IMG/VR virus record: IMGVR_UViG_3300015371_000013
Location: 1 to 64,000 of that record
Length of the DNA: 64,000 nucleotides
Direction: 5' to 3' (one strand)
Source: a virus
In this document: positions 4,403 through 38,181 of the stretch, piece after piece
Layout: every line of letters begins with the position of its first letter
How positions within the stretch are numbered: position 1 is the first letter of the stretch
Notes under the pieces: generated by a model
The model's database searches: none
The model's input: only the letters and a program-made list of their open reading frames with translations
What the model was told of the DNA's origin: nothing
Position numbers and translations under genes: made by a program

Positions 4403-4426
4403 ATCATATGCTGCGATTTACACGCG
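4403..4426 (-). promoter_or_regulatory. Phage promoter element (CGCG-N14-TATGAT) upstream of nuclease/RNAP operon
   Basis: Same 14-nt spacing as the other 22 copies; hexamer variant followed by A rather than G. Confidence 0.6.
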
Positions 4427-4466
4427 TTCCAGTATCTGAAAAAAAATACGGGCATTCTGATCAATC

Positions 4467-5027
4467 TCAACGCATTTCTACCAGTTCAAAGTACTGATAA
4501 GTAGGCCATGCTGGGGTTCGATTGAGAACTGACAACACCACTTCTCGTTCCAACAGTCCGTAACGACAAGCGGCTGACAAAGAATTTGGAAACTTCTCGC
4601 CATCGCCTATCGAACGAATAGGTACCTTGAGTGGATTGTTGTAGCGATCGCCATGAAACTGACGTTTATAAAGAATAGCATACCAACGAGGACGCCACAT
4701 AAGATTGTCTACATGACAATTCTTGGGATCACCGTCCAACTGGATAGGTGTATCAAATACGTCGGAAGGCGGAGGAAGAAAAGCTCGAGCTACCAAGCGT
4801 GGTAGAGACCGAATACACTGTTGCCAATCTCGCATAAGTCCGACGTAGGGTACTCCATACTGATTGATTCTCGGAATCAACAAACGCCCGGTTGAATTTC
4901 TCGATACTTGCCCCAGCGCGTTTACGCTGTATCCGGGAAAGCCTTCTACAGGAACCCAACCATCATCGCTCTTTCTGGTGGCGAACTCGACGTCTTGCGA
5001 GGTTTCTTCAACCCACTGCTTAGTCAT
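4467..5027 (-). CDS. NUMOD4/HNH-like endonuclease (HNH site looks degenerate)
   Basis: WVPVEGFPGYSVN (NUMOD4), RLVARAF, DGDPKNCHVDNLMW. Confidence 0.7.
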   Translation of the reverse strand: MTKQWVEETSQDVEFATRKSDDGWVPVEGFPGYSVNALGQVSRNSTGRLLIPRINQYGVPYVGLMRDWQQCIRSLPRLVARAFLPPPSDVFDTPIQLDGDPKNCHVDNLMWRPRWYAILYKRQFHGDRYNNPLKVPIRSIGDGEKFPNSLSAACRYGLLEREVVLSVLNRTPAWPTYQYFELVEMR

Positions 5028-5208
5028 CGAACTTTTCTTTACTAGTCTTCCATCCCTTTCTACGCATAGTTTCCATAGCCTCTTCGAGATCTAGAACTAA
5101 AAGAGCTCCTCCATAACCATCAAGATGATTTAGATTTCCCACATCAAAAAGCTCTTTGACTAGACCTGCTACAAACTCACGATTATGTCTCAGTTCTTCT
5201 TCAGTCAT
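5020..5208 (-). CDS. Hypothetical protein
   Basis: Tightly packed minus-strand ORF. Confidence 0.55.
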   Translation of the reverse strand: MTEEELRHNREFVAGLVKELFDVGNLNHLDGYGGALLVLDLEEAMETMRRKGWKTSKEKFDD

Positions 5209-5424
5209 CTAGGCATCCGTCTTGCCCGACTCCGGGTACCTTTTCTTCAGCTCCACATCCACTCGTTCCACCGAATCGACCATACCAATGAGATGCGCAT
5301 CCGTCACAATGGCATCTGTCCAGATCGTGATTACCCACGAATATACGCCCGCCGCTGTGCGGCGCAACTCAATTGATCCACGACCAGGAACCGGATCTCG
5401 GTAAGGCTTGACCGTCTCGTTCAT
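5209..5424 (-). CDS. Hypothetical protein
   Basis: RBS GGGAG, packed ORF. Confidence 0.6.
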   Translation of the reverse strand: MNETVKPYRDPVPGRGSIELRRTAAGVYSWVITIWTDAIVTDAHLIGMVDSVERVDVELKKRYPESGKTDA

Positions 5425-5606
5425 ATCGTCTCCCTACCTTCGGGGGTCAACAAGACTGATTTCAGACCCTCGCATCGGAATTGCCAACCTTGACCAACCA
5501 CATGTAGCTCAATCGGATTACCAGTATTTATCGCAACAGTAAACCATTCTTGCAGCTCACGAGCTTCACTTTCTAAAAGTGTTGTCAATTTCATCGATTC
5601 GACTCC

Positions 5607-5834
5607 TTAATCCTCGGTCGACAACGCCTTGAGGTAGTGCCTCCCAAACTTCAAAACCACTTTGTTATGGGTCTCTACCACAATCTCCGCCAACTCTGAA
5701 GTCTCCATCGTCCCGATCATAGGGTCTTGATGATGTGGTTTTGTGATGTCATTGGACAAAAGGGCATAGATATTACGTCCCAGTTTGTAATCAGTACGCC
5801 ACAGACGCTCTCCAGGGTTATTCAGGGGGGCCAT
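5607..5834 (-). CDS. Hypothetical protein (likely start MAPLNN)
   Basis: AAGGAG RBS upstream of an internal Met of the 5607..5942 ORF. Confidence 0.55.
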   Translation of the reverse strand: MAPLNNPGERLWRTDYKLGRNIYALLSNDITKPHHQDPMIGTMETSELAEIVVETHNKVVLKFGRHYLKALSTED

Positions 5835-5899
5835 GCCTATAGATCTCCTTTGGTAAAATTTTCCTGATCCAATAAAAATGTTAGACAAGGGCTTTTTCA

Positions 5900-6370
5900 A
5901 AGTCAGACCTGCAAATCTTGGCAATCTTGGCAAAAAGGCCAAATAGATACTGGGATTTCTCGCAAATTGCGGGATTTTTTAGCGATTTTTCTTGCCAAGA
6001 TTTTCGAGGTAAAAAGTTTTTTTATAATCGCGTTTCAATATCTGAGCCAATATCTGTTTGTTTGCACATTCTATATACTTGCACGCGCCCGCGTAAAGAA
6101 AATAGGAATTAAAGGCAAGCATAAAAGACGTGTATCAGATACTGAAATCGAAAATAAAAAAAACTTTTTTGTCGAAAAATCTTGGCATGGCAATTTCATC
6201 CCTCAAACCCTTACACAGAGCCAAAAAACTTGCCAAAATCAATCTTGGCAAAATCTTGGCAATTTTGGCAAATATTCTTTAAAAACCCGCAAATTGCGGA
6301 CTTTTCCAGTATCTGAATCGATTTTGGCATCGAAAATTAACGAGTCCAATATCTGAATTTTGGCCCAATA
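5900..6370. repeat. AT-rich non-coding region with TTGGCA/TGCCAA iterons; putative replication origin
   Basis: About ten (AATC)TTGGCA copies in both orientations, two CGCAAATTGCGG, three CAGTATCT (both orientations), poly-A/T tracts, near the helicase. Confidence 0.65.
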
Positions 6371-6379
6371 TTCCATCAA

Positions 6380-6565
6380 TTAGGGCCTCCTTTCGTCCAG
6401 CGTCTTCTCCCAGCATGGTTTACACATCAAAACATCCACACTTTCAACCTTAGCCAGCCCTGAGTCCGCTGGGAAATCGCTAAATCTCAGCTTACCCACC
6501 CCTTTTCCGGTGCAGATACCCGGGGAGTTGGGATGATTGACCACACACAGGCAATAACAACTCAT
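6380..6565 (-). CDS. Small Cys-rich hypothetical protein
   Basis: CxC..C, H, CxxC; ATGA overlap with upstream gene. Confidence 0.55.
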   Translation of the reverse strand: MSCYCLCVVNHPNSPGICTGKGVGKLRFSDFPADSGLAKVESVDVLMCKPCWEKTLDERRP

Positions 6566-8145: not shown

Positions 8146-8331
8146 ACCGTCACCTCCTTTCTAAGCTTTCCTTAGCTTGTCTACGCCTGCTTATAAAATG
8201 TTTTCTTCTATTCGTCGTGTTTTATCTCGACGCTTTGCCCATTGCAAAAGAAAAAATCCCAATACCCGTATGTAGAACGACAATAAGTATCGCCAACGAT
8301 ATTTCCATGCTTTGTCTGAATACGGTATGAT

Positions 8332-8472
8332 CTAATCCTTTCCTTTCTCTATCTGTCCCGTGCCGTTACACGCCCTGCAAGTTCGCTCCTCCATTCTATT
8401 CCCTGGATTAAGACCGAACGGACTAGGATTGACCAGAATAACGCCAGTACCCTTGCACTTAGGGCAGGTCAC
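8332..8472 (-). CDS. 46-aa DnaJ-type zinc-finger protein (not in ORF track)
   Basis: VTCPKCKGTG...TCRACNGTG, two CxxCxGxG; GTGA overlap. Confidence 0.6.
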   Translation of the reverse strand: MTCPKCKGTGVILVNPSPFGLNPGNRMEERTCRACNGTGQIEKGKD

Positions 8473-8687
8473 GTAATCACCGACACCTTTCTCGGGTCTT
8501 CGTTTAGAATCCGGCGCACCTCAGCCTCGACCTCTCGCTTACTCCCGGAAAAATCTCCCGTTAAAAACAGCATGTCCTGACCGCGAGAGCCGTAGAGCAC
8601 ACAATGCTTCGAGTTGGAGGAGACTACGATCTCCTTCGGGTTTTCCAGCAACACATCGAACATGTCCTGCAGAGTACAGTGACGCAT
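8469..8687 (-). CDS. Hypothetical protein
   Basis: RBS GAAGGTG, packed ORF. Confidence 0.55.
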   Translation of the reverse strand: MRHCTLQDMFDVLLENPKEIVVSSNSKHCVLYGSRGQDMLFLTGDFSGSKREVEAEVRRILNEDPRKVSVIT

Positions 8688-9014: not shown

Positions 9015-9038
9015 ATTATATGCCCTGTTTATGACGCG
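9015..9038 (-). promoter_or_regulatory. Phage promoter element CGCG-N14-TATAAT
   Basis: Consensus match directly downstream of a terminator T-run. Confidence 0.8.
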
Positions 9039-9084
9039 AAAAACGAAAGTCTCAGAATGAGACTCCCGTTTTGATACTACTTGT

Positions 9085-9333
9085 CTAAGACGGTCCAATC
9101 ATGAGCTGGACGCCGTCGGGACGAGTGATCATGGCGGGCAGGCCCGTGGTGAGGATGTCATTGACGATGTGGTCGGGAATATGCAACGTGGTGGCCGGGT
9201 TGCTGAAATTGGCTCCGAGGAGTTTCAGCGTGGCAACACAGGCTGCGGTTCCGACAACACTGCCGAACATCACCCCTTGGGCTCGCGGGTCATGAACGAA
9301 CTCGTTGAAACGGGTCTTGAGCTTGTCCTTCAT
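9085..9333 (-). CDS. Single-pass membrane cassette protein
   Basis: RBS AGGAGG, TM segment, flanked by promoter 9360-9383 and terminator 9039-9071. Confidence 0.7.
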   Translation of the reverse strand: MKDKLKTRFNEFVHDPRAQGVMFGSVVGTAACVATLKLLGANFSNPATTLHIPDHIVNDILTTGLPAMITRPDGVQLMIGPS

Positions 9334-9359
9334 GGTCCTCCTTGGGATAGTAGGTTTTC

Positions 9360-9383
9360 GTTATAGGAGGAGAAATAACCGCG
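9360..9383 (-). promoter_or_regulatory. Phage promoter element CGCG-N14-TATAAC
   Basis: Consensus spacing. Confidence 0.75.
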
Positions 9384-11622: not shown

Positions 11623-11716
11623 AATTAATTGTCCTCGGCCATCTCTCCGATGTCTAATTGCTTTCTCAGCCCATCGGCCATGACCGGTGGACAACCTCCT
11701 TTGTTTGTGAGATTAC

Positions 11717-11760
11717 AAAAAAGGGGCGCTCTAGCCCCGGGTCGAAGTAGAACGCCCCTG
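11717..11760 (-). terminator. Intrinsic terminator upstream of rpf
   Basis: GGGGCGTTCTA...TAGAGCGCCCC-TTTTTT. Confidence 0.7.
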
Positions 11761-11863
11761 CCATCAATATATGTGAACCGTGTGGGAAAATTTTGAATTA
11801 AAGCGTAGGCCCTTTAGTGCTTCCAGCCCATGGCTACCTCCTTTCCTAAAGGGTTACAATATA

Positions 11864-12050
11864 ATGAGGTTCGGTAGAGGGAGATACAGCCCATCCTCTT
11901 TCCTTCGGGATCCTTGAGGGGACACTCAAGAATCGCGCCTACCGCATTACCGGCTATTCGACCTCATCTTTGGAGTAGGAGGGGTGAGCAGCCAGCTCGC
12001 TCATGTCCTCCCAGCGATCAACGTGGCTGGGTTTCTTCGCTTACTCCAAA
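11864..12050 (-). ncRNA. Two adjacent candidate structured RNAs
   Basis: Closing stems 11864-70/11961-67 and 11969-77/12042-50, each with internal hairpins; no credible ORF. Confidence 0.5.
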
Positions 12051-12092
12051 TTTTGCGGGTGTCTCTCCATCATCCCGCGACAGTCTACATCA

Positions 12093-26909: not shown

Positions 26910-27122
26910 CGGAGCCCCCGATCCAGTACCGGGCCCTTAGGCAGACCGGCTACTGAACCGAGGGCTGTGATCCGTCGAGGCCGGTTCCCATCCGACCATC
27001 CCTCCTGAGGGATACTTGAAATATGTGGTCCGCGCTGAGGGAGAGGCATCAAAGTCCTTATGCCGACCACTCTCGATAGCCTCTTGCCTATTACCGTTGA
27101 TTAGATAATAGGTCTATCGAGT
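26909..27122 (-). ncRNA. Cluster of long intergenic hairpins, candidate RNA(s)
   Basis: Nested stems acgga/tccgt, gccc/gggc, cagta/tactg, ccgg/ccgg; ctcgatag/ctatcgag with cctatta/taatagg. Confidence 0.45.
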
Positions 27123-27134
27123 ACTACTTCAGAA

Positions 27135-27230
27135 CTACTTCTGCTTGGCCCACTTCTCCATCATCTGGAGCAAGGCGTCGGCCAGACGTTGCTTTCGATT
27201 CCTCTTACGACGAAGAAATGGGATGCGCAT
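27135..27230 (-). CDS. 31-aa basic peptide (not in ORF track)
   Basis: AAGGAG RBS; MRIPFLRRKRNRKQRLADALLQMMEKWAKQK. Confidence 0.5.
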   Translation of the reverse strand: MRIPFLRRKRNRKQRLADALLQMMEKWAKQK

Positions 27231-27541
27231 CTTGGGGTCTCCTTATTCTGGATCAAGAAAATATGACTGACTTAACGAGAGGGATGGATCGCCGTATTCA
27301 TTAGTGATCACAAACTGCGCTTCGTCGAATTTCTTTAAGATCCGATTTCGTTTCTGACTATTCCGCATTCGACGTCTATACAACGACGATCGTTTAGGAT
27401 AGTCCTGTGTTACTTGATGATTCTCTGCTATTTCCATCGGCCGAGAAACTTCAGACCGACCCCTCCGATGATGCCACTGGCGATGAGCATAAATATGCTG
27501 ATACCAGGGCATCAACCGGAGCTCGGGTGCTTCAAGTCGAT

Positions 27542-28351: not shown

Positions 28352-28383
28352 TCTCCTAGGCCTTTCTCGAACTTGGGTGGACG

Positions 28384-28421
28384 AAAAGAAAAAGAGATTC
28401 CGAATCAACGGATCTCTCTTC
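28384..28421 (-). ncRNA. Minimal cassette: promoter followed directly by hairpin and U-run
   Basis: GAAGAGAGAUCCG-UUGAUU-CGGAAUCUCUUUUUCUUUU. Confidence 0.55.
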
Positions 28422-28445
28422 ATTATAGGGGATGTTTTTCCCGCG
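28422..28445 (-). promoter_or_regulatory. Phage promoter element CGCG-N14-TATAAT
   Basis: Consensus match. Confidence 0.8.
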
Positions 28446-28450
28446 AATTT

Positions 28451-29613
28451 TCAGCGGTCGTTCTTCCGATGGATTTCGAGCCTCTCGCCAGGCTTGAATC
28501 GGCATCGCCCTAATTTTCCCTCCAAGGTGGTAAGGCCTATCTCACTGGGGGTAACCCATCTCACAGACACCACGTCGGTGACTGCGAAAACGACCTCCTC
28601 GGTTTCCTCATCGACAAATATGAGTTCGAAGGTCATCGAGACTTTCCGCGAAGAATGGCGGCGAGAGCCAGTAGTTTCTGAGCTTGGTCCTCGCATGACT
28701 GAGCAATCTGATCAGCGGTCATCGTCGCATCTCCCGGCAGAATATCCAGATGAGCCAGAGCCCCCCTGTGACAACTGTCAACATGACGTCGAACACAAAG
28801 GAAAAGAAGCCATAGCGCTTTCGCGGCTCTCCGAAGTAGACATGGCGAGAATATGTCTGATTGTCACGAAAGAACTCACGCATTGTCGTCACGCTCATTG
28901 TACTTGTTCTGGATCTCAATCAGCTTGGCCGACATGCTGTCGAGAATAACTTGATCGAACTCGCTGAGCTCGATACGATTATCATCCACGATTTGCAAAA
29001 GCCGATTGCGCTGTCTGATCGTCTCTTCGAGAGCGGTAGCCAGATCCTCTCGATGTTCAATTACGATATCAATGCTTTTGAGCAGTCGCTTGACCTGAAC
29101 TATCGATACAATGTTGGTGGCGAAGAGACCAGCAATGATGGCGTAAAAGTAAATATCACTATTGAGAAATTTACGCATCCCGCTTTATCCCCTTGGCTGT
29201 GGGGTGAAACTTTAAAGCGCGCCTCTCGGCGAGTTCTCGGGTGACGGCCCGGACTTTGACGGTTCGAGTCATCCCGTTCTCATACTCCACGGTGACGTGA
29301 TACAAGCGCTTCGACTTCTTGGTCTGCACGGCAGGCTCTTTCTGTTGAGGGTAAATATGACTTACGGAAGAAGATCTCTCAGAGCAGCGTAAGCTTCTCG
29401 TTGATTTGGAGTGAGCGAGAACTCAGCATACTCATTTGCGAGTTCTTTGATTTCCTGACGTTCTTCGGGGGTGAACTGTTCACGCAAAGTGCTCGCCATG
29501 CGACGAGCATCGTTGTGAATCGTCATGATCACTGTGTAATGGATGAGAGCTTTGTCTCGTGACTTCATCAGATTCCTTTCTGAGAAAAAAGAGAGAGAAG
29601 GGAATCTATCCAA
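28451..29613 (-). other. Run of small CDSs (28451..~28636, 28719..~28883 membrane, 28876..29178 membrane, ~29171..29329, 29362..~29568)
   Basis: Coupled small ORFs; the one ending at 28719 has LTVVTGGLWLIWIFCRE. Confidence 0.6.
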
Positions 29614-29664
29614 TTCAATGGCGTATTCCTTTGCAAGCCAACAGTCAGTTGGCTCTTCTCTCTC
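29585..29664 (-). ncRNA. Promoter-driven ~80-nt three-way-junction RNA
   Basis: Perfect 10-bp GAGAGAGAAG/CUUCUCUCUC then U6; hairpins AGCCAAC/GUUGGCU and GGAAU/AUUCC. Confidence 0.75.
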
Positions 29665-29688
29665 ACTATACGGCGTGTTTTCCCCGCG
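29665..29688 (-). promoter_or_regulatory. Phage promoter element CGCG-N14-TATAGT
   Basis: Consensus match. Confidence 0.8.
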
Positions 29689-29691
29689 TGA

Positions 29692-30072
29692 CTATGCGGT
29701 CACTACATCCGGCTTCCTGGCCACCCAGGTCGAGCTGATGAGATAGAGCCCAGCCAGGGTCGACAAGAACAGACCCCAACCCGGCTGAACCAGATCGTTG
29801 ACTCCCGCCTCACTGAGATGGAACCAGACATAGGCCACTTGAGACAGGACTACGAGACCGACGAAGATCGAGACGATCCTCATGTAGAGACCGGAGACGG
29901 CGGACGCGATGACGAGTCCGATGCCTGTGAATATGGCGACCGCCACCTCGGTGAAGTTCATCGGCCCGGCGCTGATGACTCCGAGAAAGCTGATCCAGGG
30001 GCCAAGGGCACCAAAGATAAGCGCGATAGCGCCAATGGTGAGCGCGGTGGGACGGTTGAGCTTGGTAGTCAT
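29692..30072 (-). CDS. Four-TM membrane protein
   Basis: Four hydrophobic helices, GPW and PGWGL motifs; AAGGAG RBS before MTTK. Confidence 0.7.
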   Translation of the reverse strand: MTTKLNRPTALTIGAIALIFGALGPWISFLGVISAGPMNFTEVAVAIFTGIGLVIASAVSGLYMRIVSIFVGLVVLSQVAYVWFHLSEAGVNDLVQPGWGLFLSTLAGLYLISSTWVARKPDVVTA

Positions 30073-30097
30073 GATGACTCCTTTATGGATTGTGGAT

Positions 30098-30185
30098 AAA
30101 AAAGAGAGACCCATCTCCTCCTGCTGTCGTAGCATGGCTTCGTTGGCAGGTCGCGTAGCATAGCTTCGCTGTGGAGATAGGTCTC
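30098..30185 (-). ncRNA. ~85-nt RNA with two copies of hairpin CGAAGC(U/C)AUGCUACG
   Basis: Stem GAGACCUAUCUCC/GGAGAUGGGUCUC then U-run; repeats at 30128-42 and 30154-68. Confidence 0.7.
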
Positions 30186-30195
30186 AAAATATAAA

Positions 30196-30314
30196 GAAAC
30201 CCCAGCACATTGCTCTACCTGGGCGCAATGCACTAGATAGAGTTAGGTGGGCACTCGAGGTACTTTTTACACCGTAGCCTGAGCGCAATGCATCAGACTA
30301 ACTGCTGGGGTTTC
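30196..30314 (-). ncRNA. Promoter-driven ~120-nt RNA with duplicated UGCAUUGCGC(U/C)CAGG
   Basis: Perfect 12-bp terminal stem 30196-207/30303-314; repeats 30218-32 and 30278-92. Confidence 0.75.
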
Positions 30315-30338
30315 ATTATACCACGGGTTTTCTACGCG
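30315..30338 (-). promoter_or_regulatory. Phage promoter element CGCG-N14-TATAAT
   Basis: Consensus match; overlaps stop codon of upstream gene. Confidence 0.8.
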
Positions 30339-30739
30339 AATACGGAATTCGGCAAAGCCGCAAACCGTTCTTGTAACCCGTGAATATCCTGAGCAATCTC
30401 ACGAGCGTTTTTGCCAACAACGGCTGCAGCTCGATTGATGCTCGGATAAGGTTCGCCAGTCAGCTTGTCCAAAACAGGAATTGGCTCACGACAAGCTCTT
30501 TTTACGAGGGCTATCTGGGTGATCTTGGGCTTCCAGATAATCAACGCCGTATTCTTTGCTTTCTGCTGTATCTCAAGCGGCAAACCGTTGAGACGAAGTA
30601 GAATGGTGGTCGCAGTGACAGAAGAGCCCACCGCGAGACATCCTGCGCCGACGAGATACACCTTCTTGTTCTCCTGCAGATGCTGCTTAACCCGCTCGAT
30701 CTTGGTACGATCGTCCTGCTTTTCTCCTTCCTGACTCAT
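30332..30739 (-). CDS. Membrane-anchored protein with C-terminal NUMOD1-like HTH (paralog of 34325..34705)
   Basis: KQHL..NKKVYLVGAGCL; PVLDKLTGEPYPSINRAA. Confidence 0.65.
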   Translation of the reverse strand: MSQEGEKQDDRTKIERVKQHLQENKKVYLVGAGCLAVGSSVTATTILLRLNGLPLEIQQKAKNTALIIWKPKITQIALVKRACREPIPVLDKLTGEPYPSINRAAAVVGKNAREIAQDIHGLQERFAALPNSVFA

Positions 30740-30922
30740 AGTCCCTTCCTTGGGTTGAACACTGATTTACAAATATGAGCGATGGTGACAGCGGTGATGA
30801 TCTTTATCACTGCGTCCGTCGTCTTGTCAATCACTCGTTCCACGTCTTCGGTGGGGATGTTGATGTTGATGTTTACATCATCTTCGATCTTGTGCTTCAC
30901 GACTCTCCTTGTCGCCCGAGGG

Positions 30923-30984
30923 AAAAAATGAAAGAGATCACAATTTCGAATATGCGATTACAGGAGCCTTTCTCCTTCTCTTTC
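30923..30984 (-). ncRNA. Promoter-driven ~60-nt three-way-junction RNA
   Basis: GAAAGAG/CUCUUUC stem then A-U6; hairpins AGGAG/CUCCU and AUCGCA/UGUGAU. Confidence 0.65.
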
Positions 30985-31008
30985 ATTATAGGGGCGGTTT
31001 TTCACGCG
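30985..31008 (-). promoter_or_regulatory. Phage promoter element CGCG-N14-TATAAT
   Basis: Consensus match. Confidence 0.8.
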
Positions 31009-31010
31009 AA

Positions 31011-31373
31011 TTATTCACCCTCAATATCTGCTTTGATATCCGGCAATTCCTTCGGGCGTTCTCGTCTTTCTGAGGTGACGATCACGGTTATGGTGGGCAA
31101 TTCCCACCGGCGTTCGGCCAGAGGATCGATCTGCATCTGGCGAAGATCCTCAGGCGTTAAAGAGAACTCGTATACTTCAGGCGTGATGACCTTGTCTCTG
31201 TCGGCCAGCACCGAGTTGAACTTCATCGCCTTGTAGGTAACCGCCGATCCAACCATGGCTCCAAATATCCCGGTGGCGGCGTAAGGATGATCGGTAGCGA
31301 ATCTGATCGAACGAGACAGCAGAAGCAACCAGTTTATCTGGTTCATCTGCTCTTTCATCTGATCTTGCTCCAT
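31011..31373 (-). CDS. Single-pass membrane protein (paralog of 36936..37184)
   Basis: TM followed by LTPEDL....DP....W motif. Confidence 0.65.
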   Translation of the reverse strand: MEQDQMKEQMNQINWLLLLSRSIRFATDHPYAATGIFGAMVGSAVTYKAMKFNSVLADRDKVITPEVYEFSLTPEDLRQMQIDPLAERRWELPTITVIVTSERRERPKELPDIKADIEGE

Positions 31374-31994
31374 CTAGCCAACCTCCTTGCTGGCCTGTAT
31401 CGAAGCGCTTACACCAATGATTCTGCAGAGAAGATTGATCGAATCGTGAGAATGCAGCGGCTCGTAATGCGGATTGAGCTTGTCTTGCTTTACCAGATCA
31501 ACGATGCCCTGAATATCCGTACGCCATTGAGAAGACGTATAGTAATCGGCCAGCCCGCGATCCGTACGCTTAAGCGTGTCAAGGAACTTATCCTCGGCAA
31601 TCTCCTTAATACGATTTGCCCATTCCGAGGTAATTTCCATAGTCGCCCCTGTGCCCTTCTGAACGAAGGGCGAATTGTCGACGTACTGCATAGCGTCGTT
31701 GTAGATTCGAGCAACCACGATCTCCTTGAGGGCATCCTGACCATAGATCAGGACAGCATAACCCAAGGGCAGATTCCAGATCTTCTCCGGACGACCATGA
31801 TGAACGCCCTGAGTGAGGCAGTTGTAGCCCCACTCGATTTCCTTCTGAGACTTCTGAGGACCCTTTACCTTGATGAACTTCACCATATTCTCAGCCTCGT
31901 ATTCCGAGACATCAAGTTCTTTGGCGATTTCACTGATAGAACGGTCTTCGCCTATCATCTGACGAGTTCGAGCTAGTTTCTCTTGGGTGTTCAT
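31374..31994 (-). CDS. N-terminal HTH protein
   Basis: RSISEIAKELDVS; AGAGGAG RBS. Confidence 0.6.
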   Translation of the reverse strand: MNTQEKLARTRQMIGEDRSISEIAKELDVSEYEAENMVKFIKVKGPQKSQKEIEWGYNCLTQGVHHGRPEKIWNLPLGYAVLIYGQDALKEIVVARIYNDAMQYVDNSPFVQKGTGATMEITSEWANRIKEIAEDKFLDTLKRTDRGLADYYTSSQWRTDIQGIVDLVKQDKLNPHYEPLHSHDSINLLCRIIGVSASIQASKEVG

Positions 31995-32099
31995 TACTCT
32001 CCTCTATACGCTTGATCTTTTGCTCCCAGAATGTCCAGTCCCGCCACCGCTGTTCTAGCAAATATAGCCGTTCTGGAGTCAACCACGGAGCAATCAACT

Positions 32100-32569
32100 T
32101 CATTGATCTCCAAGTCCGGTATCGCGCAGAATTTTTCGCGAGATTTCCTTCGGATCAGTCAACCCTTGCCATTCTGTTCCTTCGCGGATGGCAAACAGGA
32201 CGTCAATCACGGCCAGATTGTATCCGACAAACTTAGCCTGATCCTCCGGAGAAATCTCTAGGTCGCCAGGCACAGGCTCAGCAATCTGCATGAAAGTATC
32301 TTGAAGCTCTTTGAGTCGAGCTTTTTCGGTTTCGGTGATCATTGCTCTCCTAAATATAGTGATTAATCGTCGATAACCAGAGGGTCAAACCATCGACCAT
32401 CTAGATCATGACGAAACCCTGCCTCAAGCATACGTTGTTCGATAATCTCCGGATGCTCGGCCTCCATGTGCCGCACCTCTTCGTGCGTATTGTTGGCAAC
32501 TGCTCCACAATATGGGCAATGCCTCACACAATAAGGTCCGGAGCTCATGGGGTAATCCTCGTCATACAC
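32100..32569 (-). other. Two small CDSs (32100..32342; 32363..~32548 with CxxC/HxxxxH zinc finger)
   Basis: RBS; CPYC...HM..EH. Confidence 0.55.
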
Positions 32570-33021
32570 AGACTGATTCCACTCTGGGTACTCATGTAGC
32601 GCGCATCAGGCCAGATTCCCTTGCGATGAAGATCCAGCCGGTCGGCGTCCCAACAGGTGGCGATAGTGGGATTGATCGCTCTTTGACCAGAGCTATGCTC
32701 CACACAGGCCTCGAACAGTAGTTCTATTTGCTCATCGAAAATATAGCGATGGAGATGCTCTTGCGTCTTGTAGAAGCGTTCCCACAATCGATACCCTCGA
32801 TTTCCATGATCAGGATCTTTACCATCGTTTACCCGCATGGAGTCGTGAAATAAAGCGTACAACGCCACAACTTCCATGTCGGCGCCGGTTTCATACCCGT
32901 TTAGCATCTGAGCGTTCTGCCAGACCCTAAACCAATGGTCAAGACCATGGAGTCGACTCTGGAGAACGTTCAGGGTTATAGACTCGCCCAAGACAAAGGG
33001 AACGCAATGACTGGCGAGCAT
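32545..33021 (-). CDS. HD-domain phosphohydrolase
   Basis: HG..HW.RV, ALFHD, H, CWDADRLD. Confidence 0.85.
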   Translation of the reverse strand: MLASHCVPFVLGESITLNVLQSRLHGLDHWFRVWQNAQMLNGYETGADMEVVALYALFHDSMRVNDGKDPDHGNRGYRLWERFYKTQEHLHRYIFDEQIELLFEACVEHSSGQRAINPTIATCWDADRLDLHRKGIWPDARYMSTQSGISLCMTRITP

Positions 33022-33047
33022 GGTTACTCCTGCGGGTTGGCCGTTGA

Positions 33048-33320
33048 TTATAAACTTTCCTTTGCTTTCTTGCGCTTTCGTCTCTTGTAGGCACGATCCA
33101 CGGTTCGTCTAGCGCAGATATCGCTACAGTACTGTGCATCGTTTCGAGGCTTTCTTGTTTTCGAGAGAGGCTCTTGGAATAGAAATTCCTTTTGACAGGT
33201 TTCGTCAGCACATCGCTTGATCTCGACATCAAGTAAAGTCAAGATCGCATCTGTGAGAGTGCTGGTTTGAGTATAGGAAAGGGCAGTCTGAACTACTACG
33301 TCGGGTACATCTTGGTTCAT
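33048..33320 (-). CDS. CGNR-like zinc-finger protein
   Basis: CADETC..EF...AQYCSDIC.RR, basic tail. Confidence 0.6.
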   Translation of the reverse strand: MNQDVPDVVVQTALSYTQTSTLTDAILTLLDVEIKRCADETCQKEFLFQEPLSKTRKPRNDAQYCSDICARRTVDRAYKRRKRKKAKESL

Positions 33321-33872
33321 CACGACTGCAAATATGCGATGTCGCGAGCCTGCTTGAGATCGCGAGCCTGCTCGATGGTCAGACCAAGAAGCTCGGTCTT
33401 GGTGAAGCTCAGCTCGTCGCTGAACCACGGGAAGACAAACTTCTCAGAGCCGTCTTCCATAGTGGCGATGGCCTCCTTGTCACCGTAGCGGTGATTGGAG
33501 TCTTGAAAGATTACTGACTTGATGCGCATAACTCTCCTAGTTTGGGTTGCCGAACAGTTCTTCCAGACGTGTAGCCAGATACTCCTGTCGAACTTCGTGA
33601 TGAACGTCTTTCAACTCTTCAAGAATATCGTGAGCAATCTGCTGATACTCCTGGCTGCTCGTAGTCTCGACGGGGAACCAGCGGTTAAGCTTCGGGTAAG
33701 GCCCTTCGCTTCTAAGGGCGTTTTCCCGCTTGAGTCGTCCGAGCATGGTGGTGATCTGGAGTGGCGGGCCCTCGAAAGAAATCCCAGCAATGATCTCAGA
33801 TCGAGCGGCTCCAGGATTGGCACGGACATATTCTATGATTTGATGTGTAAGAGTGTTGTTGGTTTGTGACAC
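33320..33872 (-). other. Hypothetical CDS (33320..33529) and winged-HTH CDS (33537..33872)
   Basis: RBS; QIIEYVRANPG..RSEI...LGRLKR pattern. Confidence 0.55.
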
Positions 33873-33937
33873 AAAGTCTCTCAGGTTGTGGGGTCTCAGA
33901 AAAAATGAGAACCCACGAATGGATTCTCATTGAAATA

Positions 33938-34144
33938 CTACGACTTGTTGAGCTTGGCGGTCTCGAGGTTGAGCTTGGCGGTCTCGAGCTGCATCTGGTT
34001 CACCTTGAGGCCTGCGTACACGGACGCGCCGGTCAGAGCCACGGGAATGACGATCCACGCGGTCATGATGGCGGCATCCTTGATGCGCTGCTTCTTGGTG
34101 GGCTTGGGCGGCTCGACGACCTTGGGGGTCTCGGGCTCGGACAT
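33938..34144 (-). CDS. Single-pass membrane cassette protein
   Basis: AAGGAG RBS, TM, LETAKLN repeat; ORF-track extension runs through the upstream RNA. Confidence 0.7.
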   Translation of the reverse strand: MSEPETPKVVEPPKPTKKQRIKDAAIMTAWIVIPVALTGASVYAGLKVNQMQLETAKLNLETAKLNKS

Positions 34145-34193
34145 GCAACACTCCTTTTGTAGTGGTTTCATTATGAACTGTGAAATATCCGCG

Positions 34194-34298
34194 AAAGAAA
34201 AGAGAGAGCCACCTACCAACGACTTATAGAAGTTGGGATCCGACCCCCTTAAAGGGGATCTCGTCAAGGCGACTTAGAGAAGCCTAGATGACTCTCTC
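34194..34298 (-). ncRNA. Promoter-driven ~100-nt four-way-junction RNA with duplicated CUUCU(C/A)UAAGUCG
   Basis: 14-bp terminal stem with two G-U pairs; three hairpins, the outer two sharing the motif. Confidence 0.78.
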
Positions 34299-34324
34299 AC
34301 TATAAAGCGTGAATATGGCGCGAA

Positions 34325-34705
34325 TTATATGGTGATACGTTCGAAGTGCAACCCATTCGCATGCGGGTATTTACCGTTCAGATGCTGTGAAAGGTTAGTT
34401 TCCGAGATGCCCTTCGCCAAAGCGGCCTCTGCTTGGCTGCTCCACTTCTCCAGAGTTTCGAGACATCGTACTGGATTAGCCGGGTAATTGCGCTGGTTCA
34501 AATACTTGATGACCACGTCGACATTCTTTGACTTATTGACTATCAGACCAATGTTGTCAGTACCATTGAACGTCTGAATTACATTGGGGCTTGACACCCC
34601 GCGCAGCAAATATCCCGCGGTAAGACATCCTGCACCAACCAAGTAAACCTTCTTGTTGTCCTTCAAATGCTGCTTGATCTTCTGATAACGCGTAGACTCT
34701 TCCAT
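34325..34705 (-). CDS. Membrane-anchored protein with C-terminal NUMOD1-like HTH
   Basis: KIKQHLKDNKKVYLVGAGCL; PVRCLETLEKWSSQAEAA...SQHLNGK...GLHF. Confidence 0.7.
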   Translation of the reverse strand: MEESTRYQKIKQHLKDNKKVYLVGAGCLTAGYLLRGVSSPNVIQTFNGTDNIGLIVNKSKNVDVVIKYLNQRNYPANPVRCLETLEKWSSQAEAALAKGISETNLSQHLNGKYPHANGLHFERITI

Positions 34706-34760
34706 GATTTCCTTTAGTTCGTTTGAATAAAAAAGGAAAGCCCCTTTTCGGGGCTCGCCT

Positions 34761-34922
34761 TTAGGCGTAGATCTGAACGACGCCGGGGACGAGGGTGGTC
34801 TCAGCCAGCTTGGCCTGGGACTTGGTGATCATTCGCTCGTACTTGTACACCGCACGGATAGTGCGGAGAACGTTGACGTTTGCGTTGATCTCGGTCTTAA
34901 CGGCCTTGATGGGATGGAACAT
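34761..34922 (-). CDS. 53-aa cassette protein (not in ORF track)
   Basis: AAGGAG RBS; MFHPIKAVKTE...QIYA between promoter and terminator. Confidence 0.7.
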   Translation of the reverse strand: MFHPIKAVKTEINANVNVLRTIRAVYKYERMITKSQAKLAETTLVPGVVQIYA

Positions 34923-35009
34923 AATGGTCTCCTTTGGTGGTTTAGGTCTTCATTATGTACCATGTTTTTCACGCGAAAAAGGAAAGCCCGTGCGGACTCT
35001 CCTTAGAAA

Positions 35010-35207
35010 TTACTTCACCTGGTTGGAAGCTGCCTTGAGGGTTTCGAGGACGATCCTCTTGTCGAGCATCTTGTACGAGATGAATGAGTTGGCGACTGCG
35101 GTAGCACAGTAGATGGAAAAGCATCCGAGTACTAGCTTTTGGCTGCCAGTCATCATCATGATACGAGACCTCCTAAGAGGCTCACGGGTTTCGTTTGACT
35201 CGGGCAT
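35010..35207 (-). CDS. Cassette membrane protein
   Basis: Between promoter 35235 and terminator; an alternative start near 35159 has AGGAGG. Confidence 0.65.
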   Translation of the reverse strand: MPESNETREPLRRSRIMMMTGSQKLVLGCFSIYCATAVANSFISYKMLDKRIVLETLKAASNQVK

Positions 35208-35295
35208 AACTCTCCTAGAGTTGATAGTGGTTTCATTATAGCCTGTGAAAAGTATGCGAAAAACTGAAAGCCCGGGTTAGGGGCTCTCAGTTTGA

Positions 35296-35433
35296 TTAGC
35301 TGCTCTTCTTCGAAAGCAGATGATCGGCGATGACGATTGAACTCGTTGCCAGCGTAAGCCACGCACTGGCCCGAGTGGCCCGATGGGCGTGGGGGGCGGT
35401 GACGTGGATGACGGCGGCGAGCTTGTTCTTCAT
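35296..35433 (-). CDS. 45-aa cassette protein (not in ORF track)
   Basis: AAGGAG RBS; MKNKLAAV...SKKSS. Confidence 0.7.
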   Translation of the reverse strand: MKNKLAAVIHVTAPHAHRATRASAWLTLATSSIVIADHLLSKKSS

Positions 35434-35531
35434 GGCAAATCTCCTTCTGATAAGAGGGTTTACTTTTCATTAGAAGCTATGAAATATCCGCGAAAAACCT
35501 AGAGACCGGGTTAGGGTCTCAGGGTTTTGAA

Positions 35532-35723
35532 CTAGAACTTACGGGCGATGATGACTTGGGAGTTCGGCTCGAGTGCGGCCAGAGCATCGACATGTTCCTG
35601 GATGCGGCGCTGACGCTCCTGCTCTTCCCCAGCTGCAGCGAATGCAGTGAGGGTGAACAGAGCGGCGCCACCCAGGGCCTTGCCGGTGTTGCGGGCGTAC
35701 TTCTTGGCGGTTTCCTTGGTCAT
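35532..35723 (-). CDS. Cassette membrane/secreted protein
   Basis: RBS, hydrophobic segment. Confidence 0.7.
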   Translation of the reverse strand: MTKETAKKYARNTGKALGGAALFTLTAFAAAGEEQERQRRIQEHVDALAALEPNSQVIIARKF

Positions 35724-35823
35724 GGTTTTTCTCCTTTTGAGTTTGATTTAGTTCTCATTATAAGACATGAAAATTACGCGAAAAAAGAAAGAAAGAGAAT
35801 CCGATGCGGACTCCCTTCTTGAT

Positions 35824-35955
35824 TTAGACCTGCGAGGTGTACTGGTGACCAACGTCTTGTAGACTGGCGTACACGTCCATTGCAAATATGCTTCCCATCG
35901 CGAGGATGGTGAGCAGGATTACAACGAACATGAGGCGTCCGAGGGACAGGGTCAT
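35824..35955 (-). CDS. 43-aa membrane cassette protein (not in ORF track)
   Basis: AAGGAG RBS; MTLSLGRLMFVVILLTILAMG... Confidence 0.7.
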   Translation of the reverse strand: MTLSLGRLMFVVILLTILAMGSIFAMDVYASLQDVGHQYTSQV

Positions 35956-36043
35956 GAGGTATCTCCTTGTTTAGGTTTGGTTTCATTATACTCCATGAAA
36001 TATGCGCGAAAAAGGAAAGCCCGTGCGGACTCTCCTGTTGAGG

Positions 36044-36262
36044 TTACTTCTTGGGGTTAATGTTCTCGACAGCGCGCCTGGCGGAAGTGAGAGCGATCTG
36101 CTCCTCGAGGTACATGATGCGGGCATTGACCTTGTTGGTGTGGCTCTCGCTAGCGGCAGGGCTAGCGGAAAGCTGCCAACGAGTCATTTCGGCATTCAGG
36201 TACTCGAGGATGGCATCAAGCTTCTCAACTTCTGTAATAGGCTTACGGGTCTTGAAAAACAT
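36044..36262 (-). CDS. Cassette protein
   Basis: RBS, own promoter and terminator. Confidence 0.7.
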   Translation of the reverse strand: MFFKTRKPITEVEKLDAILEYLNAEMTRWQLSASPAASESHTNKVNARIMYLEEQIALTSARRAVENINPKK

Positions 36263-36343
36263 GTTGACTCCTTGATAGTGGTTTCACTATAATCCATGAA
36301 ATATGCGCGAAAAAGGAAAGCCTGGGTAGGCTCTCCTGTGAAA

Positions 36344-36520
36344 CTAATTGTTCTGCTGGGAAACGTCGGCTTCGAACTTGCGCTTATTTCGGCGGTCCAG
36401 ATAGTTGACGAATCCGATACCCACGACGATCAGAGTAGCGTTGAGGGCAACGTACTGAACGGGGTGACTACGAATCCAGTCGTACTGGACCTCCTGAGAC
36501 TTGCGGTAAAGCTTGAACAT
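36344..36520 (-). CDS. Cassette membrane protein
   Basis: GGAG RBS, WIRSHPVQY followed by TM. Confidence 0.7.
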   Translation of the reverse strand: MFKLYRKSQEVQYDWIRSHPVQYVALNATLIVVGIGFVNYLDRRNKRKFEADVSQQNN

Positions 36521-36614
36521 TGGAGTTCTCCAGTGTAGAGGTTTGGTTTCATTATAACCCATGAAATATGCGCGTAAAAAAAGAGAAGCCGGGTTAGGAC
36601 TCCTCTCTAACGAT

Positions 36615-36848
36615 CTAATCGATGGGAATCAGGTCGTAGTGAAATCGCGGAAAGCCGATACGTCTCATCTGGAAACGATAACGACCGGGCGGCACGGTGC
36701 GGAAATCTCCGTCCTGACACATGTTCATGAAAGTTCCGTGAAGAATCTTTTCTTTTTGTGTCGGGTCAGAGGTGACATAGGCAACGTGGGCCACATCGTC
36801 GTCGTTTATAGTGACGAGAATATAGGGTTTTGACGATTTTCGAAACAT
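36615..36848 (-). CDS. Cassette protein
   Basis: GAAAGGA RBS, own promoter and terminator. Confidence 0.7.
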   Translation of the reverse strand: MFRKSSKPYILVTINDDDVAHVAYVTSDPTQKEKILHGTFMNMCQDGDFRTVPPGRYRFQMRRIGFPRFHYDLIPID

Positions 36849-36935
36849 GATGTTCCTTTCGGGTAGGTGTCATTATAAGCTGTGAAATGTTCGCGAAAAA
36901 AGAAAGTCCCGGATTGAGACTCTCTTTTTGACTAC

Positions 36936-37184
36936 TTACACGACAGGACTCGCTTCGTTGAGGACGAAGATGTTGAGGCGATCAGAAGTCCACTTGAGAG
37001 CATCTCCTGGATTGTCCAGCAGCTTCTGGAGATTCTCAGGGCTGACCGAGAGGAACAGATCGCTGGTGTTGTTGGACATCAGGCGATGTGCTCCTACGGC
37101 TCCTGCAATAACTCCAGCACCGTAGACGATGACAGTGTGATGCTTCCGATAGAACTTCTTAGCACGTTGGTACTTGTCGTTCAC
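36936..37184 (-). CDS. Cassette membrane protein
   Basis: GTG start after AAGGAG; TM followed by VSPENL...LDNP. Confidence 0.7.
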   Translation of the reverse strand: MNDKYQRAKKFYRKHHTVIVYGAGVIAGAVGAHRLMSNNTSDLFLSVSPENLQKLLDNPGDALKWTSDRLNIFVLNEASPVV

Positions 37185-37278
37185 GAAATACTCCTTTGAG
37201 TAGTAGGTTGTCACTATACCCCATGAAATATGTGCGAAGACAAAAAGAGAAGCCGCGTTAGGGCTCCTCTCTTTGAGA

Positions 37279-37500
37279 CTACTTCACCATGTAGATGGCG
37301 TAGCCGTGTCCAACGACTTTGACACTCATCTCGAACAGGTCATCGTGGTCAATGATCCTGTGGTTTGTGGTATCGGTGGGGCCATCGATCTCGAAGACGA
37401 ACCAGGTATGTTCTTCTTCAATCTCGGGACGGACGCCACCGTTCAGAACCTGGATCAAATCCAGAGTGTTCTGTTCGATGGGAATGGCGTATGTGGACAC
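37279..37500 (-). CDS. Cassette protein
   Basis: GTG start after AGGAGG. Confidence 0.7.
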   Translation of the reverse strand: MSTYAIPIEQNTLDLIQVLNGGVRPEIEEEHTWFVFEIDGPTDTTNHRIIDHDDLFEMSVKVVGHGYAIYMVK

Positions 37501-37695
37501 GAAAATCCTCCTTTGGTTAGGTGTGGTTTCACTATAAACCATGAAATATACGCGCCAGTATTTACAGTAAATGCGAGTCAGTATCTGGACTTTTCACCAA
37601 AATTACCCCCCGGGAATTTTTTGATAGTGAAAAAAAGAGAGGCTGTGTTTTTCACACGAACCTCTCTCTTCGATAACTTATTTCAGGATTTGGCG

Positions 37696-38046
37696 TTACG
37701 ATCGAGGCTTCATCACGAAGCCAAGCGCGGATCTGCTTCTGATCACATGTTCGCGCTCGTAGCGGGCCAACCAGAGGATCCCGAAGATATTGGCGGCGAC
37801 GACAAGCACGGTGTCCGGGCTGATCTGCTTGCTGAATCCGAATCGTCGTTCATCCGCCAGTTCCTGCTCTTGTTTTTTCAGTTTGGCGGTCTGTTCGACT
37901 TCTTCGATCTTCAGTTTGTGCAGCTCGGAAATATGCTTGACAATCGATGCGTATTCCTCGGAGGTCTTCGCATGGTTTGGCAGCTCTTTGAGGGCGGCTT
38001 GGATCTCAGCATCGAGCTTGGTCTCGATTTGAGTCTTGATAAACAA
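37696..38046 (-). CDS. Conserved membrane protein heading the early region
   Basis: SEEY, ISPDT..VVAANIFGIL..ARYE...VI.S.ALGFV motif. Confidence 0.75.
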   Translation of the reverse strand: MFIKTQIETKLDAEIQAALKELPNHAKTSEEYASIVKHISELHKLKIEEVEQTAKLKKQEQELADERRFGFSKQISPDTVLVVAANIFGILWLARYEREHVIRSRSALGFVMKPRS

Positions 38047-38181
38047 TTACTCTCCTTTGATAGGGTTGTCATTATAGGCTGTGTATCAGCCGCGAAACCC
38101 TATAACCCAGGTAGCCAGGCAATGAGGAAGATGGTCACCACCGCAAATATGCCGATGATGCAGATGACCAAGATCCCTAAC

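Follow-up and report, generated by a model that had tools for sequence, protein, structure and literature searches.

The question raised by the IMG/VR virus record IMGVR_UViG_3300015371_000013 is which RNA polymerase reads a motif that is repeated 23 times along one strand, and what is made from those copies that lead to no open reading frame (ORF). The window analyzed here comprises the first 64 kb of this 80.5-kb record, which is rated complete by CheckV. Our best explanation as a whole, to which we assign a probability of about 0.6, is that a polymerase encoded by the phage itself uses the motif as its own promoter and transcribes from it short units that carry either small proteins or RNAs.

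All 23 copies lie on the minus strand, as do all features of the window for which coordinates are given below in discussing promoters, RNAs, and their genes. They follow the consensus T-CGCR-N3-WWWW-CA-N5-TATART-GArA, which extends over approximately 30 bp. The minus strand of the window holds 21 matches to the pattern CGCR-N14-YHTART and the plus strand holds one, compared with 1.9 ± 1.3 matches in 100 shuffles (maximum 5). A weight-matrix scan recovered two extra minus-strand copies, one at 9360–9383 (box TATAAC) and a weak one at 4403–4426 (TATGAT, then A), and on the plus strand no weight-matrix match exceeded 8 bits. The hexamer is directly followed by G in 22 of the 23 copies. The pattern scan and the matrix together thus give the very counts of the earlier note, made from the letters of the sequence, which had listed 23 minus-strand copies with a 14-nt spacer, 22 of them followed by G. 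The spacer length is strict, as the whole record holds 22 coding-strand matches at 14 nt and between 0 and 4 at each of the other spacings tested from 10 to 19 nt, and seven relatives scanned over the same range showed the same exclusive spacing. The matrix was built from 21 strong sites, in which the CGC, the C eleven bases on, the third, fourth, and sixth positions of the box, and the GA after the box do not vary, while the four positions ahead of the invariant C are always A or T. With the G after the box taken as +1, T-CGCR occupies −25 to −21, the A/T tract with CA −17 to −12, TATART −6 to −1, and GArA +1 to +4. The block centres near −23, −13, and −4 are therefore about one helical turn apart, a spacing that would suit a single protein lying on one face of the DNA. 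In total, the motif holds about 30 bits of information. No copy was found ahead of the structural genes. Most copies had been said to lead to a ribosome-binding site (RBS) and a small gene, and this is the case for the 16 strong copies other than those of the ORF-less units; the start codon of such mRNA-type units is located 21–35 nt past the G in all genomes examined.

All relatives tested share this geometry on their coding strand, and each of them encodes a homologue of the candidate polymerase, a 959-aa protein, so that motif and polymerase were found together in 10 of 10 relatives examined. This comparison took in relatives with a polymerase only 35–70% identical. Five IMG/VR relatives (G001 to G005, polymerase 43–70% identical) contain 10, 3, 8, 16, and 6 coding-strand copies, whereas controls gave 1–2, and 15, 12, and 10 copies were counted in Rhodococcus phage ReqiPepy6, Streptomyces phage Rima, and Arthrobacter phage Gordon, respectively. 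Faecalibacterium phage FP_oengus retains CGCG-N7-CA-N5, the A-tract, and the 14-nt spacing, yet its box reads CTTTAT followed by GG; 11–13 copies of this type are present, on the coding strand only (11 forward, 0 reverse). In Lactococcus phage P118, ACA-N5-TATAAT-GA is preserved and the upstream block is rich in A/T. In ReqiPepy6, Rima, G003, and G005, conservation covers the first 18 bases of the predicted transcript, RBS included. No match to the window's exact promoter consensus was found in the viral contigs scanned.

With a lenient test for TTGACA, a −35-like partner at 16–18 bp was found for only 2 of the 21 motif sites, and sigma-70-type matches in the region numbered 8, fewer than the 11.5 in its own shuffles. 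When sites were collected by the upstream half of the motif alone, eleven genomes yielded 116 on the coding strand and 12 on the other strand. At these sites, box position 2, the equivalent of the sigma A-11, is the least conserved at 69%, while T at position 3 reaches 87%, T at position 6 (the T-7 equivalent) 92%, and G as the next base 84%; the box variants TTTAAT, TCTAAT, and TGTAAT are common in relatives. The motif is almost certainly a lineage-specific promoter. Since its sites have no −35 element, since no box position is less conserved than the A-11 equivalent, and since FP_oengus carries a CTTTAT box, we read it as the promoter of the phage polymerase, which is probably, rather than the host enzyme, what transcribes from it. 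The proposal of a private phage promoter, and the suggestion to look for the motif in related genomes, were borne out to this extent by a fixed geometry that lacks a −35 element, is kept on the coding strand of all relatives tested, whose hosts belong to different genera and phyla, and in one relative is joined to a box other than TATAAT.

The candidate enzyme is encoded at 561–3440 and is annotated from PHROG 4291, Foldseek, and weak helix-turn-helix (HTH) matches as a single-chain two-barrel RNA polymerase of 959 aa with HTH modules at its N terminus (approximately residues 34–114) and C terminus (approximately 925–957). An RNA polymerase with an ADFDGD motif had been noticed before, and the assignment is strengthened by a full-length PHROG 4291 match (1112 bits, residues 4–957) and by the DxDGD metal-binding loop, present as SGADFDGD at residues 542–549 and invariant in 15 relatives. 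Sequence profiles show only HTH-like segments, namely residues 34–114 and a sigma region-4-like stretch at 937–956, both as weak matches. An AlphaFold model built from the relatives' alignment (pLDDT 71.6) found QDE-1 as the best PDB match in Foldseek (E 1.5e-5, probability 1.0), followed by RDR2, P74 gp62, and the largest subunits of Pol IV and Pol II; given the low TM-scores, the structural match covers the core only. According to this model, the protein has the two-barrel, QDE-1/YonO-like RNA polymerase fold, and polymerase activity is predicted. Relatives were found in 250 deposited phages of Arthrobacter, Gordonia, Streptomyces, Rhodococcus, Curtobacterium, Microbacterium, Lactococcus, and Faecalibacterium hosts and of gut viromes. 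The same protein family, PHROG 4291, was described as 'HTH domain / RNA-dependent RNA polymerase', a signature protein of an actinophage–Firmicutes supercluster, in a preprint that predicted the polymerase from the DxDGD loop and an HHpred match to RNA-dependent RNA polymerase and noted the HTH ends, but, unlike the present work, names no promoter, RNA cargo, or virion role (10.1101/842583). No experimental work on this polymerase family was found in the literature searched.

For the use of such a promoter early in infection, the location of the enzyme is of importance. The homologue in Lactococcus phage 1706, orf75, was labelled 'structural protein' by its depositors while most of its neighbours were labelled 'unknown', and a note in the ReqiPepy6 record repeats this label. 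The label is taken as a lead only; if it stems from virion proteomics, the enzyme would be injected and early-type promoters could depend on it. The polymerase gene itself is preceded by a variant promoter with a leader hairpin and U-run at 4363–4426, upstream of the endonuclease-like, exonuclease, and polymerase genes. Here, the box is TATGAT, the predicted transcript starts with A, the matrix score is 8.4 bits, and the fold of the leader hairpin is weak (z −0.57). An A-start AGAAGRRG leader is located at the equivalent place in ReqiPepy6 (72597), G002, G003, and G004, and in three relatives it is followed by a UAGAAUA-like word. This A-start promoter subclass could be a control point for the polymerase and late genes.

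The six promoters whose hexamers end at 23634, 28422, 29665, 30315, 30985, and 34299 have no RBS-led ORF ahead of the U-run. The minimum-energy folds of all six units join the first G to the one or two bases immediately ahead of the U-run, and fold z-scores were obtained from dinucleotide shuffles. The unit at 34195–34322 consists of a promoter (34299–34322), a 97-nt three-arm RNA (34202–34298; z −4.05) in which CUUCUMUAAGUCG occurs twice, a repeat reached in 0 of 200 shuffles, and a U-rich tail, with the next promoter directly behind. At 30923–31008, the promoter (30985–31008) leads to a 56-nt RNA (30929–30984; z −3.16) and U-run, followed by promoter-less genes including that of a PHROG 27818 protein. 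The unit at 30186–30338 has its promoter at 30315–30338 and a 119-nt three-arm RNA at 30196–30314 (family A, see below) that contains a 15-nt motif twice and ends in the tail UUUAUAUUUU (z −4.79). Directly behind it lies a second stem-closed RNA, the seventh of the window (unit 30098–30185, RNA 30106–30185), which has no full promoter and precedes a promoter-less 126-aa gene. It folds with the lowest z-score, −6.65, and carries two CGAAGCYAUGCUACG hairpins, a repeat likewise reached in 0 of 200 shuffles; a similar unit was found at positions 888–977 of metagenome contig L082. At 29585–29688, a promoter (29665–29688), a 74-nt two-arm RNA (29591–29664; z −5.91), and a U-run precede a promoter-less 68-aa gene, and at 28384–28445 a promoter (28422–28445) and a 34-nt hairpin (28388–28421; z −2.83) with U-run precede the promoter-less DUF6353 gene at 27545–28351. 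The weakest fold of the six (z −0.67) belongs to the unit at 23533–23657, where a promoter (23634–23657), a 95-nt RNA (23539–23633), and a U-run (23533–23538) have the next promoter directly behind.

The six cassettes had been described as free of ORFs and closed by a stem and U-run, and their RNAs had not been recognized as any described family; the stem-closed folds of 34–119 nt and the database searches agree with both statements. Rfam 15 gave no gathering-score match in the window and, for 23400–34400, nothing on the RNA units at E values up to 1, and ARAGORN found no tRNA in the window. Eight sequences, the 4402 leader and the seven stem-closed RNAs, were compared with ten relatives by blastn-short, which returned chance-level matches only (E 0.045 and above), and viral contigs scanned for the twin-loop pattern of the 34298 RNA gave zero matches. 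The RNA families are uncatalogued and new here, no description having been found in the sources searched. We consider it likely that at least the larger ORF-less units yield selected, structured RNAs. A type III toxin–antitoxin system of the ToxIN kind was considered as well, given the two-repeat RNA, the U-run, and the gene order in some units, and was rejected as the adjacent proteins match no PADLOC model or Pfam toxin.

Homologues of one of these RNAs allowed its structure to be examined by comparison. A metagenome scan with the neighbouring 135-aa protein returned four short contigs (L082–L085), each with the promoter and then stem-closed RNAs, and four of the contig RNAs are homologous to 30196–30314 (one in L082, two in L083, and one in L084). 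The alignment of these five family A sequences shows a 12-bp closing helix from the first base, three arms, and invariant junction sequences. Compensatory changes occur in 13 of 34 pairs, whereas structures slid by 1–3 columns as a control give 1–4 compensatory pairs, and 92.3% of the cells are paired compared with 80.5% in column shuffles, a value reached in 0 of 500. The arm tips are exchanged between members while the scaffold is constant, and the flanking protein is 40–58% identical in these contigs. With five sequences, the covariation is supportive, short of conclusive. When 854 kb of related DNA was searched with a covariance model (R1), no additional members emerged, and a scan with two conserved blocks of the family was discarded because its four loci all fell in an unrelated coding region.

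Across lineages, 11 of 21 stem-closed RNAs contain an internal direct repeat of 13–23 nt with at most one mismatch, which was reached in 0 of 200 shuffles (shuffle mean about 8 nt). Inspection of the folds showed that this repeat is a small hairpin displayed twice, on different stems. C-AUUGC-G pentaloops were found in this phage, L084, and Gordonia phage Conley, and GC-YAU-GC triloops in this phage, L082, and L085; the AUUGC pentaloop was rejected as a general signature, being present in a subset of the RNAs only. Such a twofold presentation of a selected loop on a stable scaffold suggests that these RNAs bind a dimeric protein or act as decoys. In relatives, the family promoter also drives tRNA-like genes (FP_oengus, L058 2935–3006; G004, L070 3583–3655; ReqiPepy6, L050 1206–1280), two of which have an abnormal anticodon loop and are assigned no anticodon by ARAGORN. 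They may be decoys or nuclease-resistant tRNA variants. As a separate observation on the promoters, two spacer flavours can be distinguished at spacer positions 5–13, ATATTTCA and GAAAAAC, with A-tracts of opposite sense. A GAAAAC-type spacer is found in 5 of 6 RNA units and 3 of 16 mRNA units of the window (hypergeometric p approximately 0.011, hand-calculated), and an AGAAA(A/C/U)C spacer in 5 of 6 RNA units of contigs L082–L085.

The RNAs have a recurrent protein neighbour. The PHROG 27818 protein of 135 aa (30335–30739) has an N-terminal hydrophobic segment and, from weak fold matches, a C-terminal HTH-like module, and a 126-aa paralogue (34328–34705) is located directly upstream of the 34322 RNA unit. 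A promoter and an RNA lie behind both genes, and this order was found again behind homologues in ReqiPepy6 (gp065) and in the Gordonia phages Conley (gp54), Avazak (gp45), and Tanis (gp55), the RNA regions of the latter three records being unannotated gaps of 130–288 nt. It was also found in three of the four metagenome contigs, while the fourth has the gene start only, at the contig end, preceded by such a unit. The model of the protein is poor (pLDDT 61.7), and its weak matches are to small DNA-binding domains, including the C-terminal domain of I-HmuI (E 0.8); the conserved C-terminal module may resemble the small DNA-binding domains of homing endonucleases. No PADLOC or Pfam match was obtained for the proteins adjoining the RNAs. 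The RNAs behind the PHROG 27818 gene in ReqiPepy6 (48455–48556) and Tanis (L092, approximately 1600–1715) have an internal hairpin in common, with a compensatory change of CCCC/GGGG to CUCC/GGAG, which suggests a second conserved RNA family.

The remaining promoters drive protein genes. The largest group forms a head-to-tail array of 13 promoters at 34170–38094, twelve of which lead to genes of 43–116 aa, with CGCG starts at 38094, 37554, 37236, 36895, 36574, 36309, 36008, 35780, 35492, 35258, 34975, 34322, and 34193. Most genes of the array end with a hairpin and T-run that abut the next promoter. Further promoters lead to a 93-aa gene (24020–24043), to a 53-aa gene with a transmembrane-like segment (23496–23519), and, in the region 9015–9383, to two genes of 80–82 aa (promoters 9015–9038 and 9360–9383). 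The promoter-driven proteins measure 43–135 aa, and a hydrophobic segment of membrane type is present in 9 of 20. An interchangeable cargo had been proposed for the cassettes, in keeping with the high turnover observed: when ten relatives were searched (E up to 1e-4), 7 of the 23 genes located from 38046 to 28876 gave a homologue and 16 gave none, whereas the replication-module genes all have homologues there. As the array genes are mostly without homologues while the motif is kept, the promoter is conserved while its cargo is replaced. Some junctions are near-identical, with about 32 nt common to those at 34975 and 36008. In metagenome contigs of the DNA runs X1 and X2 covering 28300–38100, variants join at the promoter repeats (36574 to 35258; 33995 to 34729). 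Such joins fit cassette gain and loss by recombination, but may be an assembly artefact, as low-depth contigs can jump at repeats. The low-depth contigs of the two DNA runs show no listed variants inside the RNAs.

From these data, a model can be drawn. The single-chain two-barrel polymerase (561–3440) would be carried in the virion and read the approximately 30-bp promoter, its fused HTH modules recognizing the three promoter blocks. Transcription is suggested by the sequence to begin with the G behind the box or with a base adjacent to it; this start is favoured because the G-C-rich part of each closing helix begins at this G, because the tandem RNAs that have no full promoter open with the same GAGACC, and because motif conservation extends through +1 to +4. 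Each promoter would drive a short unit closed by a hairpin and U-run. The cargo would be of two kinds, either fast-changing proteins of 43–135 aa or, in six units, a non-coding RNA whose 5′ end is paired just before the U-run. The RNAs would be expected to be stable molecules that bind a protein or serve as decoys. Since four of them stand between a promoter and promoter-less genes, their terminators probably also limit or gate the genes behind them.

The chief competitor on the promoter side holds that the motifs are strong early host sigma-A promoters with a start 6–8 nt downstream, that CGCR and CA are sites of a phage regulator (an early shut-off repressor or an activator), and that the phage polymerase acts elsewhere, for example on late genes. 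We judge this unlikely, even though it can draw on several facts. The box reads TATAAT or TATAGT in 17 of the 21 window sites and in most lineages equals the sigma-A/sigma-70 −10 consensus, and many actinobacterial promoters function with a −10 element alone, so that the host enzyme could read the sites and the upstream blocks could be bound by a regulator. The motif also stands ahead of early-type genes, the usual ground of the host polymerase. A 43–50-bp intergenic motif with five copies in the Gordonia cluster DJ phages Vardy and Conley was indeed called a sigma-70 −10 box in two announcements (PMC9671010, PMC10868162); MEME had detected it in the central region of small genes, and it is the present motif as carried by close relatives, but, unlike here, it was reported without a link to a phage polymerase, other clusters, or non-coding RNAs. 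In addition, the sole member of the wider enzyme family to have been tested, YonO, is a polymerase of late genes (PMC5467207). However, host promoters would not account for the missing −35 partner, for the poor conservation of the A-11 equivalent with its common TNTAAT variants, for the CTTTAT box that FP_oengus combines with the same upstream geometry, or for conservation through +1 to +4, and the strict 14-nt spacer and some 30 bits of information are unlike host promoters. A YonO-type late polymerase is also difficult to reconcile with structural genes that have no motif copy ahead of them. Transcription by the phage polymerase, for its part, has to contend with several points besides the −10-like box. 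The polymerase gene is the last large gene of the genome and lies itself behind a variant of the motif, so that the model needs a virion-borne enzyme, for which the evidence is solely the depositor's label of a 35%-identical homologue. Relatives without the polymerase were sought as a natural control and none was present in the phage collection (replication genes in 253 records, polymerase in 250); as the two sets coincide, co-occurrence cannot separate the polymerase from other lineage-wide factors. Start sites and terminated products are predictions from sequence. The claim that the stems start at the G holds in so far as the minimum-energy folds pair the first G near the U-run, but in folds computed with box and tail, pairing between the A/U bases of the box and the U-rich tail can extend the helix further upstream, as is predicted for about half of the units, which weakens the argument and leaves it as a weak hint. 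The covariation expected of selected RNAs was likewise found in part, in the 13 pairs of family A, while homologues exist for this one family with its five sequences and 5 of the 7 window RNAs have no known relative.

On the side of the cargo, the ORF-less units might be cis-acting leaders, that is promoter-proximal terminators or attenuators in the style of lambda pR′-6S-tR′, or mRNA-stabilizing 5′ stem-loops, which we hold to be a possible but tentative account. The units at 31008, 30338 (with the second RNA), 29688, and 28445 and the variant at 4426 all precede RBS-led genes that have no promoter of their own. In relatives, moreover, the PHROG 27818 gene lies behind a promoter, a stem from the first transcribed base, and a U-run, formed by unrelated sequences of 24, 56, and 70 nt, and gp38 of Arthrobacter phage Gordon lies behind such a unit. 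On the other hand, the units at 34322 and 23657 directly precede another promoter, where read-through is not needed, so that attenuation is not the whole story; neither the three-arm architecture nor the invariant junctions and duplicated hairpins are required of a terminator, and in relatives tRNA-like genes, too, are enclosed by this promoter and closing stem. Of the claim of six RNA cassettes, the absence of ORFs and the structure stand, whereas the four units at 31008, 30338, 29688, and 28445, which precede promoter-less genes, may be terminators or leaders as well or instead. The roles as free RNA and as cis-leader are compatible. A further proposal, that the terminator–promoter junctions are mainly PeSL-like recombination substrates that shuffle accessory genes and that the ORF-less units are empty or decayed cassettes, appears very improbable to us. 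The high cargo turnover, the nearly identical junctions such as those at 34975 and 36008, and the contigs that join at promoter repeats, e.g., 36574 to 35258, would all agree with it. The ORF-less units are, however, more structured than their shuffles, one of them is conserved with compensatory changes beside a protein only 40–58% identical, and joints from low-depth contigs able to jump at repeats are weak evidence.

The preferred reading of a phage polymerase with its own promoter can be carried a step further. A virion-delivered, HTH-fused polymerase that is sigma-free, recognizes an autonomous promoter of approximately 30 bp, and starts immediately behind the TATAAT-like box, together with modular scaffold RNAs that rank among its main products, each display an exchangeable small hairpin twice, and act with the membrane-anchored HTH-like PHROG 27818 protein, might constitute an undescribed RNA–protein module for host takeover or counter-defence across actinobacterial phages. 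This extension is speculative, and we regard it as distinctly unlikely.

Parts of the arrangement resemble known systems. PeSL cassettes of T4-type phages are reportedly composite units of a terminator and an early promoter that flank small, fast-changing ORFs in a hyperplastic region, their promoters being host sigma-70 early promoters. The likeness, terminator–promoter units that flank variable small ORFs, is one of architecture only and implies no sequence or host relationship, while the present promoter differs in being lineage-specific and lacking a −35 element, and some units carry RNAs rather than ORFs. In lambda, the promoter pR′ is immediately followed by the terminator tR′, giving the short 6S RNA, and the genes behind depend on read-through. 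The same succession of promoter, terminator, and short RNA ahead of promoter-less genes is found here, but in several units rather than one and with elaborate conserved RNA bodies, and no Q-like factor or binding site was identified. On the side of the enzyme, Thermus phage P23-45 has a virion (gp96) and a non-virion (gp64) two-barrel RNA polymerase with their own promoters, and it shares with this phage a single-chain two-barrel polymerase and phage-specific motifs before early genes (PMC10770324). In P23-45, the virion-borne enzyme solves the first-transcript problem, whereas carriage in the virion is predicted for the phage described here; the authors of that study also linked motif and enzyme by comparing relatives (PMC10770324). 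Unlike in P23-45, there is one enzyme, which is flanked by HTH modules and not fused to the tape measure, the box is TATAAT-like, and the family is known from sequence and model alone. YonO of the Bacillus prophage SPbeta transcribes one late operon, its promoter sequence having been left undetermined in the 2017 paper, and is comparable, by description only, as a phage-encoded single-chain relative of multisubunit polymerases with a DxDGD loop (PMC5467207). In contrast to YonO, the present motif lies ahead of early-type genes and RNAs and not of late genes.

The PHROG 4291 family joins an HTH-fused catalytic core to a sharply defined promoter of approximately 30 bp, the natural variants of which track the divergence of the enzyme. 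To our knowledge, it is not understood how single-chain relatives of cellular RNA polymerases find their promoters. With the HTH-fused core, the defined promoter, and more than 250 sequenced relatives, among them many named isolates on Gordonia, Arthrobacter, Streptomyces, Rhodococcus, and Lactococcus, a direct test of this question requires no more than a purified protein and a handful of templates. The ORF-less units offer RNA families of recurring design, with a closing stem from the first transcribed base and a small hairpin displayed twice, as candidate phage RNA effectors in Actinobacteria. If promoter and polymerase do work independently of the host enzyme, they would provide a compact orthogonal expression tool for high-GC Gram-positive hosts.

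As to the wider layout, the G+C content is 51.7%. All larger ORFs matching protein families are on the minus strand, and along the direction of transcription, structural genes (a collagen-repeat protein, a protease–capsid fusion, a 1978-aa tape measure, and a ReqiPepy6 Gp37-like tail protein) are followed by the small-gene block (38.1–23.3 kb), the replication genes (a 1274-aa primase/polymerase and a helicase), and finally an HNH endonuclease, an exonuclease, and the 959-aa ORF. The stretch with the promoters is a hypervariable early-type module in a soil-type siphophage of the ReqiPepy6 / Gordonia cluster DJ / Lactococcus 1706 supercluster, and megablast of 28000–38200 against the phage collection gave zero matches. 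The DUF6353 / PHROG 2152 paralogues at 27545–28351 and 21279–22241 are conserved across the whole supercluster. At 51915–53999, one ORF of 694 aa combines a prohead protease (S78-like, residues 33–124) and a major capsid domain (residues 404–602), both Pfam matches being slightly under the cut-off.

Lastly, the gene-free gaps of the window merit a comment. An A/T-rich stretch of 437 nt at 5943–6379 is dense in short direct and inverted repeats (CAGATATTGG, TTGCCAAGATTTT, CCGCAATTTGCG) and looks like an iteron-type replication origin or a landing pad for a regulator. The word CAGATACTGG, akin to these repeats, occurs immediately upstream of the 4426 promoter and of its G002 counterpart, and a near-copy, CCAGATACTGA, lies about 30 nt upstream of the 37554 promoter. 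Four more gene-free gaps of 232–398 nt, at 24987–25325, 24539–24770, 11695–12092, and 8146–8538, are without the promoter motif; the gap at 11695–12092 closes with a strong terminator, and all four may contain further RNAs or control regions.

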